Shown here: in pieces, positions 26,701-61,971 of the stretch
Layout: every line of letters starts with the position of its first letter
Position numbering within the stretch: the first letter of the stretch is position 1
IMG/VR virus record: IMGVR_UViG_3300028048_000064
Coordinates: 64,001 to 128,000 of that record
Reading direction: 5' to 3' (one strand)
DNA: 64,000 bases
Origin: a virus
Lineage: Duplodnaviria > Caudoviricetes
Translations under genes and position numbers: made by a program
Notes under the pieces: model-generated
Database searches by the model: none
Seen by the model: only the letters and a program-made list of their open reading frames with translations
What the model was told of the DNA's origin: nothing

Positions 26701-27081
26701 ATGGTACAATCATATTATAGTTATAAGAAACAATTACGTGAAAGTTATGTTGAACCGACAGTTTCATTACAAGAAGCAGCAGAGTCAACAAGAAAAGTCA
26801 GACGTAAGTCAAATGATAAATCTACTGATGAGGTTTATTTTGACCGTGAGGGTGGTGAAATGAGGTTTAAATATAAGTTAGAGCCTGAGCATGCAGAACT
26901 ATATGTTGAGATTTCATCTGATTTTATAACATATAGAACTGAGGATAATGATTTGATTTTAGTCGCAAAACCAAACCCATATAGTTTAGAAAGAAGATGT
27001 ATTGTTAAGATAATGAATTCATTTAATCCGTTATTCTCGCAGACAAAAGTCGTTATTCAGAAAGGAGTTGACCAAAAATAG
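26701..27081 (+). CDS. hypothetical protein with degenerate BACON-like C-terminus
   Basis: LVAKPN...ERRCIVKI...VVIQKG. Confidence 0.45.
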   Translation: MVQSYYSYKKQLRESYVEPTVSLQEAAESTRKVRRKSNDKSTDEVYFDREGGEMRFKYKLEPEHAELYVEISSDFITYRTEDNDLILVAKPNPYSLERRCIVKIMNSFNPLFSQTKVVIQKGVDQK

Positions 27082-60424: not shown

Positions 60425-60727
60425 CATCGCAATTCAGAAATAATACTTCTGATAAAGCGAAAAACGGAACAATGAGGCAGAAATACCGAATGTAAGTTTC
60501 CAAAAAGAGTTCTTTGACATATTGGGACAACAAAATAAAGCAAAAAAATCAATGCGGAGAGGATTGGTGAAAAACCACATTCATTTTTGTCTATAAGGTG
60601 ACGAATTGGGGTCAGGTAGTCAGTAATTACAAGCCCACCTTACGGGATGAGCCTATAAACAAACAAAATGAATTAGTTCAGTAAATATAAGATAGAAATA
60701 TCTAACAGAATTCCAAATTGGTGAAAT

Positions 60728-60797
60728 GCGTCTTTGGTGTAATGGTTGCATATCTGATTTCCAATCAGAAGGACAGGTTCAATTCCTGAAGACTGCT
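60728..60797 (+). tRNA. tRNA-Gly(TCC), slightly atypical
   Basis: TCTGA-TT-TCC-AA-TCAGA anticodon arm and GGTTCAATTCC T arm; acceptor GCGTCTT/AAGAC(T)GC has a bulge. Confidence 0.75.
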
Positions 60798-60802
60798 CTC
60801 TT

Positions 60803-61256
60803 TTGCATATCATAGGTAGTTTCTTCAAAATTCGGTGGAAATCCTTCCCTTCAAACCTGCAATTTATAATGTGTGGCTTAAGTATGGCGGAGGAACCACA
60901 ACACTAATCAATAATGTGCAAGGATAATACCGAGTTAAATTGAGATAATGACCTCCTTAATTGGACTGGGAAAGTTAAAAGCTTTTTATCTTATAGTACC
61001 TAAGTTGAAATTTATATAGTAGAAAAGCGGAGCACGTGTGAATCGGAGGTAACCAGTTCTAGTAGAAGCACTTCATCGTGTGGGCTGGGCATAAATGAGG
61101 AGATACTACTATGTAACTTGCAAGAATTTCAATAAGGTAATTTCAGACTACAACAAACAAAGAATAGAGGAATAGCAATTTGCTATAAACTCCACTGTCA
61201 ACTGACAGGAAGTAGGCTTTATTGTACAAACCACTTTGTTTGGCTATGATATGCAA
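60803..61256 (+). ncRNA. large (~455 nt) end-paired structured RNA candidate
   Basis: 13-bp perfect closing stem TTGCATATCATAG/CTATGATATGCAA, many internal helices, and no ORF in the track. Confidence 0.6.
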
Positions 61257-61272
61257 TCTTTAGAAAATATAT

Positions 61273-61562
61273 AGAACAAGTACAGACCACTGAGTAGGAA
61301 CTGGGGAAGTGATAGGTAAATGCTAGCTTCATATTTATCATGTAGACGGACTCAAAGCAGTACCGACAGCCCAGTGAAAGGTGTTGGTTAGGATAAGGAG
61401 TTATCCAATACGTGAAGAGCAGCGTATTTCGTGAGAAGCCATAAGCAGGAACACAACAAATGCCGTAAAACAGCGCAAGTGCCTAATAGCGGGTTTCCTG
61501 ATTAAATCTGAATAGATGATAAAAGGTTGCAAAAGTCTGTACCTCGTAAATTTACTTGTTCT
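61273..61562 (+). ncRNA. ~290-nt end-paired structured RNA candidate
   Basis: AGAACAAGTA/TACTTGTTCT and GTACAGAC/GTCTGTAC pairings plus internal hairpins. Confidence 0.55.
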
Positions 61563-61569
61563 TTTGAAT

Positions 61570-61641
61570 GCTTGGATAGCTCAGAGGCAGAGCATCGCAC
61601 TGTTAATGCGAGGGTCGGGATATCGTAATTCTCTCCAAGCG
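61570..61641 (+). tRNA. tRNA-Asn(GTT) with non-canonical T arm
   Basis: GCTTGGA/TCCAAGC acceptor, TAGCTCAG D arm, TCGCA-CT-GTT-AA-TGCGA; T loop reads ATCGTAA. Confidence 0.75.
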
Positions 61642-61785: not shown

Positions 61786-61943
61786 GTGGCAGTAACTCAG
61801 TTGGTAGAGTGCCGGACTGAATACAGAGTAAACTGAAAAATCAAACTTCGTATTGGTTGAGTGGCTGAAACTTTTAAACATTGGTTCGAATCCAATATAC
61901 GAAGCAAATCCGGTTGTCGGTGGTTCAAATCCACCCTGCCGCA
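61786..61943 (+). tRNA. tRNA-Phe(GAA) interrupted by an 85-nt insert (61822-61906) containing a tRNA-like module
   Basis: Removing the insert gives a canonical cloverleaf: GTGGCAG/CTGCCGC, CCGGA-CT-GAA-AA-TCCGG, GGTGG-TTCAAAT-CCACC. Confidence 0.88.
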
Positions 61944-61971
61944 CATTTATATGAAAAAAAAACGTTCGAAA

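Follow-up and report, generated by a model that had tools for sequence, protein, structure and literature searches.

A structured non-coding element in a huge-phage tRNA operon descends from a family of tRNA group I introns and is probably a splicing-dead relic

Introduction

What kind of RNA is specified by the 454-base structured non-coding stretch that lies 3' of a tRNA-Gly gene in the tRNA operon of a huge phage? The stretch, at 60803-61256, is part of the window that we analyzed, a 64,000-nucleotide piece of DNA comprising bases 64001-128000 of the 149.9-kb IMG/VR huge-phage record IMGVR_UViG_3300028048_000064, which is approximately 41% complete by the CheckV estimate. Positions are those of the window except where G000 precedes them, in which case they are those of the whole record. 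The original prediction, which was made from the sequence alone, described the stretch as a large non-coding RNA that might belong to a new kind of ornate RNA and might be linked to the processing of tRNA inserts.

Results

Structure and setting of the element

We found the predicted 13-bp terminal stem to be perfect, with TTGCATATCATAG (60803-60815) fully complementary to CTATGATATGCAA (61244-61256), and the nested helices listed with it (TTGAAATT/AATTTCAA, TAGTAG/CTACTA, AAACAAAG/CTTTGTTT, ATAGCA/TGCTAT and CTGTCA/TGACAG) are all present in the sequence and in the minimum-free-energy fold. The element was said to follow tRNA-Gly directly and to lack an ORF. Indeed, the gap to tRNA-Gly(UCC) is 5-6 nt, and 60803-61256 holds no notable ORF, either in the standard code or when TAG, TAA or TGA is read as sense. 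The description of a large, multi-helix, stem-closed element of the non-coding RNA type in the tRNA operon is thereby borne out. Two further pairings, ACCTCC/GGAGGT and GGACTGG/CCAGTTC, had been put forward as possible pseudoknots; the two pairings cannot both form as one duplex, because their partner segments are wrongly ordered. GGACTGG/CCAGTTC recurs in L015, the sole relative with the same P6 extension, and may represent a loop-loop contact between P6 and P8.

By itself, the 13-bp stem is at approximately chance level, as a second perfect long-range 13-nt inverted repeat is found at 26963/27485 in the 64-kb window. The folding energy is only modestly better than that of shuffled sequences, and the difference is not strand-specific (z = -2.2 for the plus strand and z = -2.1 for the opposite strand). 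What raises the element above chance, on the alignments described below, is its homology to a covarying intron family and not its thermodynamics. When the window was scanned with Rfam, no match was obtained in 60803-61256, whether matches had to reach the gathering threshold or only E <= 10. Neither setting gave a match to GOLLD, ROOL, other large ornate RNAs, tmRNA or RNase P RNA, in agreement with the earlier judgment that the element is neither a tmRNA nor an RNase P RNA.

The surroundings of the element are rich in tRNA genes. An array of approximately 25 tRNAs occupies G000 124700-136300 (window 60700 onward), together with a tmRNA (tag GETTYALAA) and a tRNA that reads UAA. Despite the UAA-reading tRNA, ORFs in the standard code cover most of the 150-kb record well. 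The acceptor stem of tRNA-Gly(UCC) is imperfect, with either two mismatches at its top (G-G and C-U) or one bulged U, the D stem has 3 bp and the T stem has 4 bp, and this tRNA may be damaged or unusual. Upstream of it, a 430-nt non-coding stretch contains a weak Rfam match to the DUF2693 RNA at 60509-60602 (26 bits against a gathering score of 81, E 0.04). Two tRNAs of the array (window 61786-61944 and G000 136097-136262) are split in the anticodon loop by tRNA-shaped inserts of 85-93 nt, and that of tRNA-Thr(CGU) amounts to an entire suppressor tRNA (anticodon UUA), a "tRNA-in-tRNA" arrangement that has been described for Lak phages (PMC6784885).

A separate RNA candidate of approximately 290 nt (61273-61566) starts 16 nt after the element and ends just before tRNA-Asn(GUU) at 61570-61641. 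It is conserved over its full length in the Prevotella phages Lak-A1 and Lak-B1, where it lies directly 5' of tRNA-Ile. The candidate is closed by a 10-bp helix (AACAAGUA.../...UACUUGUU) in which two pairs are compensatory, and it has several invariant internal hairpins. Judged by these sequence comparisons, it looks more conserved than the 60803-61256 element. A resemblance to RNase P RNA was considered and discarded, as the candidate has no Rfam match even when it is scanned as an isolated stretch.

The element has relatives in the anticodon loops of huge-phage tRNAs

A sensitive self-comparison revealed three collinear conserved blocks that are common to the element and to a non-coding stretch 6 kb downstream in the same genome. 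Two of these blocks, scanned as exact patterns in IMG/VR, gave 21 loci, and a third pattern gave 67 stretches. In most of the loci the motif lies within a 460-750-nt insertion in a tRNA anticodon loop, as determined using ARAGORN. The interrupted tRNAs include those for Arg-UCU, Leu-UAA, Ser, Thr, Tyr, Trp, Met and Pro as well as suppressors with the anticodons UUA and CUA, and the tRNA-Leu(UAA) relatives are interrupted at the U34/A35 site. The insertions form a family of ORF-less introns of 460-750 nt from huge phages of the rumen and gut, the shortest member being the 359-nt intron of locus L019.

In the intact relatives, the last base of the 5' exon is a U, which pairs with a G in the short guide sequence immediately 5' of P2, and this guide covaries with the exon (GGA/TCT, GAGT/ACTT, GGTT/GACT, GTG/CAT and GCA/TGT). 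The introns end ...CATAGAGTGGYARG, that is, with a terminal G. For an alignment of 38 intact introns and the window copy we wrote out 13 helices, covering P2, P3, P4, P5, a conserved P5a hairpin, P6, P7, P8, the closing helix of the P9 domain, P9 and P9.1. Standard pairs fill 94.7% of the alignment cells, as compared to 33-44% after the partners are slid by 1-3 columns. Both sides have changed in 39 of the 69 pairs, and none of 500 shuffles attained the observed values. P7 forms a pseudoknot with P3, and both helices covary in the relatives. The Rfam model RF00028 (Intron_gpI) aligns over its full length to the intron of L019 with a score of 38.4 bits (E 3e-8), short of the gathering score of 50. 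The structure line of this match is consistent with our assignment of P3, P4-P6, P7 and P8. The larger members escape this model: nine related loci scanned with Rfam gave no intron match, and RF00028 found nothing in the window copy (E <= 10) or in G000. The relatives are group I introns, given the U at the end of the 5' exon with its covarying guide, the terminal G, the P3/P7 pseudoknot, the covariation and the RF00028 match to L019. Their P2 has a GAAA loop and their P8 a CCUAAG/UAUGG receptor. The family core is Azoarcus-like and may belong to the IC3 subgroup, as the GAAA in L2 with its receptor in P8 and the short P9 region resemble those of Azoarcus. We found no paper describing a family of long ORF-less tRNA introns in huge phages; the family is large, covaries well and is apparently undescribed.

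Traces of the family were also seen elsewhere. Its P7-P3'-P8 block is present in unannotated sequence of the crAss-like phages cr116_1 (MT774389, 18968-19025) and IAS virus (KJ003983, 86717-86764), with 88-94% identity over a stretch of approximately 50-60 nt. Six loci (L012, L040, L041, L046, L071 and L073) have a recurrent variant of the intron in which a tRNA-like module begins within approximately 10 nt after the P7 3' strand (GGTAAAAATACTCTC); the "anticodon" loop of this module is oversized. At all of these except L041, the 5' flank has a conserved GGTCAGTGGTGGAGGACTGA...CAGCCCCTAACAA motif, and L012 has a weak tmRNA-like match in Rfam. The variant may interrupt a Y-RNA-like or tmRNA-like gene and not a tRNA gene.

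The window copy retains the scaffolding domains and lacks the catalytic core

A profile HMM of the 38 intact introns matched the window at 60822-61248 (nhmmer, E 7.9e-43, profile positions 87-523). Between the P3 5' strand and the P9.1 5' strand, copy and profile align collinearly apart from two clean gaps. The first gap (profile positions 281-304) takes in J6/7 and the P7 5' and P3 3' strands, and the second (417-423) takes in the P7 3' strand. The copy retains 86 positions with a conservation of at least 90% in the family, of which 83 are unchanged, and the 11 conserved positions that it lacks all fall in the two core deletions. At an E-value of 8e-43, a spurious alignment to the intron family is very unlikely, and on the evidence of this profile the window copy is a descendant of the huge-phage tRNA group I intron family. 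The features of the copy are collected in Table 1.

Table 1. Features of the element and its upstream neighbor in the window
Feature	Position	Strand	Basis or remark
tRNA-Gly(UCC), intact upstream neighbor	60728-60797	+	ARAGORN; Rfam tRNA 44.3 bits
5' arm of 13-bp closing stem	60803-60815	+	first 9 nt = part of tRNA-Gly
CATAG, last 5 nt of 5' arm	60811-60815	+	matches family P2 3' strand
J2/3 and P3 5' strand remnant	60816-60826	+	fold, alignments
P4-P6 domain, intact	60831-60993	+	alignments, helix table, profile
P4	60831-36 / 60929-34	+	
P5	60841-46 / 60920-25	+	P5 extension present
P5a hairpin, conserved	60901-04 / 60916-19	+	
P6 with extension	60941-48 / 60986-93	+	
Scar of ~23-nt deletion (J6/7, 5' strand of the guanosine-binding helix P7, P3 3')	60994-60997	+	nhmmer alignment
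P8 with 11-nt-receptor-like motif	60998-61139	+	helices 10 and 11, profile
Scar of 7-nt deletion (P7 3' strand)	61139-61140	+	profile alignment
P9 domain	61145-61242	+	fold, helices 12 and 13
3' arm of closing stem	61244-61256	+	CUAUG = family P9.1 5' strand

P4, P5, P5a and P6 are all present and paired. The P5 extension is approximately 93% identical to that of L054, a tRNA-Ser intron, and the P6 extension is approximately 93% identical to that of L015, a tRNA-Leu intron, with no indels in P4-P6 relative to either. From these identities, the window copy is, like other members, a mosaic. P8 reads in the order CCUAAG, UUGAAAUU, a 106-nt copy-specific extension, AAUUUCAA and UAAGG, with pairing between 61005-12 and 61125-32, and its receptor thus has UAAGG where the family usually has UAUGG. 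In the P9 domain, ACUAC is the 5' strand of the family's domain-closing helix, and P9 itself consists of CAAACAAAG (61154-62) paired with CUUUGUUUG (61234-42), with a copy-specific extension that has two hairpins.

Missing from the copy are the parts on which catalysis would depend. Upstream of 60811 there is no exon, no guide sequence (GAGT or GGA in the family) and no P2 5' strand. The P3 5' strand reads UUUCUUC as compared to AAUCUCC in the family, and its partner strand is deleted. Downstream of 61248, ATATGCAA replaces the ...CATAGAGTGGYARG end of the family, and no tRNA 3' half follows. Both tetraloops, GAAA in L2 and GUAA in L9.1, are absent. Since no guanosine-binding P7, guide sequence or terminal G is found, the alignment leaves the copy with no recognizable catalytic apparatus and predicts that it is unable to splice; by the same comparison, the features of a working group I intron are all absent except the scaffolding domains. 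The suggested link to the processing of tRNA inserts consequently finds no support. As for novelty, the helices that had been taken for a possibly new RNA are P4-P6, P8 and P9 of the intron family, and the homology refutes that suggestion: the element is a new, defective member of the known group I class, not a new ornate RNA.

The closing stem and a rebuilt junction

The origin of the terminal stem can be read in part from the family, in which the P2 3' strand (CCAUAG) is complementary to the P9.1 5' strand (CUAUGG). The closing stem of the window copy consists of these two orphaned strands plus 8 new pairs (UUGCAUAU/AUAUGCAA), which bring it to 13 bp. The 8 nt that follow CUAUG (AUAUGCAA) stand in place of the GUAA loop, the P9.1 3' strand, the GURGY strand, the terminal G and exon 2. 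In addition, GUAGUUU (60816-60822) can form 7 bp with AGACUAC (61145-61151), substituting for the 3'-terminal GURGY strand of the family; this helix replaces the family's ACUAC/GURGY helix and has 2-3 extra pairs. On this pairing model, the family three-way junction (closing helix, P9 and P9.1) is rebuilt in a permuted topology.

Neither an extended P2 nor the closing-stem sequence is present in any other family member examined. Bases 60745-60753 of tRNA-Gly (TTGCATATC), as read from the sequence, recur at the 5' start of the element, and this 9-nt identity in the 5' arm suggests that a piece of a duplicated exon 1 survives there. Perfect complementarity could have arisen without selection, either through a fold-back template switch at the CATAG/CTATG repeat or from an ancestral long P2.

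Other truncated copies and the search for orthologues

A 3'-truncated copy in the same genome (G000 130579-130949) abuts an intact tRNA-Ser(UGA). The slightly longer stretch G000 130561-130970 (L002 ~1355-1764, outside the window) can be described as a defective copy with an orphan tRNA 5' half; it has P1, P2, P3, P4-P6, the P7 5' strand and P8, and is without the P7 3' strand, P9 and the 3' exon. A lone P8 fragment lies at G000 130254-130396, 300 nt upstream of this second defective copy. Differently truncated copies are found next to intact tRNAs at four loci in related contigs (L061, L066, L043 and L051), among which that of L061 begins at the same J2/3 point as the window copy and retains P4-P6 and P8, with a degenerate P7. 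We considered whether the truncated copies that abut complete tRNAs might have a terminal G directly before tRNA position +1, and thereby a ribozyme-made 5' end, and rejected this, as the G is the tRNA's own first base; the base before that first G is a T in the three clear cases of truncated copies abutting tRNAs.

Patterns specific to the junctions of the element identified no orthologue with the same architecture in IMG/VR or in JGI metagenomes. The pattern GTTTGGCTATGATATGCAA had two matches, both unrelated and due to chance, TATAGTACCTAAGTTGAAATT had none, and CAATAAGGTAATTTCAGAC had three unrelated matches in metagenome contigs, one of them within a kinase gene. Likewise, the flanking proteins (a 417-aa ORF upstream and the downstream ORF) have no relatives in IMG/VR. 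Among GenBank phages, the element was unmatched and the downstream segment alone matched Lak phages.

Discussion

The element derives from a group I intron, can no longer splice and is probably decaying as a relic. On this reading, rapid turnover of tRNA cassettes in the array would have overwritten both flanks of an intron-bearing tRNA gene, and small deletions would then have arisen in its core, where the sequence is repeat-rich. The RNA is probably transcribed along with the adjacent tRNAs and discarded as spacer after RNase P and RNase Z have released them, in which case the element would have no function of its own. The genome holds two more defective copies and other contigs hold truncated ones, and the finding of multiple truncated copies beside intact tRNAs fits a rapid turnover of tRNA cassettes that overwrites older intron-bearing genes. 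The loss of both docking tetraloops, the altered P8 receptor and the failure to find, in IMG/VR or the JGI metagenomes, an orthologue of this architecture also speak for a relic, as does the lack of close relatives of the flanking proteins in IMG/VR. Against it, the decay does not look random: all three small deletions are in the P3/P7 core, the conserved positions elsewhere are nearly all unchanged, P4-P6 has no indels relative to L054 and L015, and the 8 closing-stem pairs together with the 2-3 added pairs of GUAGUUU/AGACUAC rebuild the junction, an outcome that would not be expected from neutral decay alone. It also counts against a relic that phage genomes usually rid themselves of useless DNA. 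These huge phages nevertheless carry much non-coding sequence (PMC6784885).

The non-random pattern is the basis of a tentative alternative, which we regard as possible though rather unlikely, namely that the element is an exapted RNA in which the group I scaffold (P4-P6, P8 and P9) came under selection after the core was removed and was re-closed by the new stem. Possible roles would be those of a stable non-coding RNA, of a decoy or binding platform for an intron-recognizing protein, or of an element in the processing or stability of tRNA transcripts. Consistent with this, both P7 strands are gone while the rest of the scaffold is preserved, the 13-bp stem and the 7-bp helix recreate a three-way junction, and the changes at the 5' end all make new pairs. 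The possible P6-P8 loop-loop contact GGACUGG/CCAGUUC is common to L015, the second copy in L061 starts at the same J2/3 point with P4-P6 and P8 kept and P7 degenerate, and tRNA-adjacent intergenic regions of Lak megaphages are highly expressed (PMC6784885). However, the core is rich in short tandem repeats (GTGT, AGAGAG, TATATA and GAGA) and is a hot spot for slippage, so that clustered deletions need not signal selection. The loss of both domain-docking tetraloops and the mutated P8 receptor make the native fold doubtful, and the segment with the remodeling changes derives from an unsampled lineage of a mosaic intron, so that drift is not measurable there. The element is, moreover, a singleton in IMG/VR and the JGI metagenomes, and its folding z-score is only -2.2 and not strand-specific. 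A more specific form of this alternative, slightly more doubtful still, is a domesticated scaffold, with its core removed, its ends closed by the stem and its junction permuted, that is kept by selection as a stable RNA of the tRNA operon; it might serve as a protein platform or decoy for factors that recognize the family's many active introns.

Far less probable is a part in a working ribozyme system, either as a fragment of a split group I ribozyme that another RNA would complete in trans or as a helper that processes neighboring tRNA inserts. Azoarcus group I constructs do assemble from fragments in vitro (PMC2709566), and neighboring tRNAs contain unexplained inserts. However, the 150-kb record has no complementary fragment that would supply P1, P3', P7 and the terminal G, the other copies in it are themselves defective, and without P7 there is no guanosine site. 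Completion by the short tRNA inserts was rejected, as these are tRNA-shaped and have no core motifs resembling P7 or P3. That the element represents a new, unrelated class of large ornate RNA, for which the lack of any Rfam match in 60803-61256 even at E <= 10 might be cited, is refuted by the strong profile homology to a covarying group I family, one member of which is matched by RF00028.

Group I introns in the anticodon loops of bacterial tRNAs are well known (Williams 2020, bioRxiv 10.1101/2020.01.27.920355; PMC13168695). The intact phage relatives share the anticodon-loop site with the intron of Azoarcus pre-tRNA-Ile (IC3) and with the cyanobacterial and plastid tRNA-Leu(UAA) introns, including the classic U34/A35 position. 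They also share with bacterial tRNA introns the 5' U-G pair, the terminal G, the P3/P7 pseudoknot, the P2 GAAA and the P8 receptor. The phage introns differ in being 2-3 times larger (460-750 nt), with extensions on P5, P6, P8 and P9, and all but the shortest escape RF00028. The window copy has P4-P6, P8 and P9 in common with its intact relatives; without exons, P1, P7, P3' and the terminal G, it is not a functional member of this group. Lak megaphages, for which "enigmatic" tRNA introns and highly expressed intergenic regions have been reported (Devoto et al. 2019, PMC6784885), offer the same setting of huge gut phages whose tRNA arrays contain interrupted tRNAs and large non-coding spacers. 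However, the inserts described in that paper are short and tRNA-shaped, with none classed as group I, and a BLAST search of the deposited Lak genomes found no copy of the intron family. Group I introns are also abundant in protein-coding genes of gut jumbo and crAss-like phages (PMC12880540, PMC7886860); these are mostly approximately 200 nt long, whereas the present family targets tRNAs and its window copy has no exons. The remodeling and re-use of a group I scaffold has a precedent in the GIR1 lariat-capping ribozyme (PMC2219692), which, in contrast to the window copy with its lost P7 and P3 and no known activity, keeps its catalytic core and a defined reaction.

For annotation, the element is a useful caution: what looks like a novel "ornate RNA" next to phage tRNAs can turn out to be a decayed group I intron to which Rfam is blind. 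If the scaffold was in fact retained after loss of the core, it would be a rare natural case of a ribozyme fold re-used non-catalytically. As an intron relic, which is the reading that we prefer, the element is of modest interest, and its wider context matters more. Huge phages of the rumen and gut carry long ORF-less group I introns in many tRNAs, suppressors included, along with many truncated copies, and the intact and truncated introns together record a fast birth-and-death cycle of introns and tRNA cassettes.
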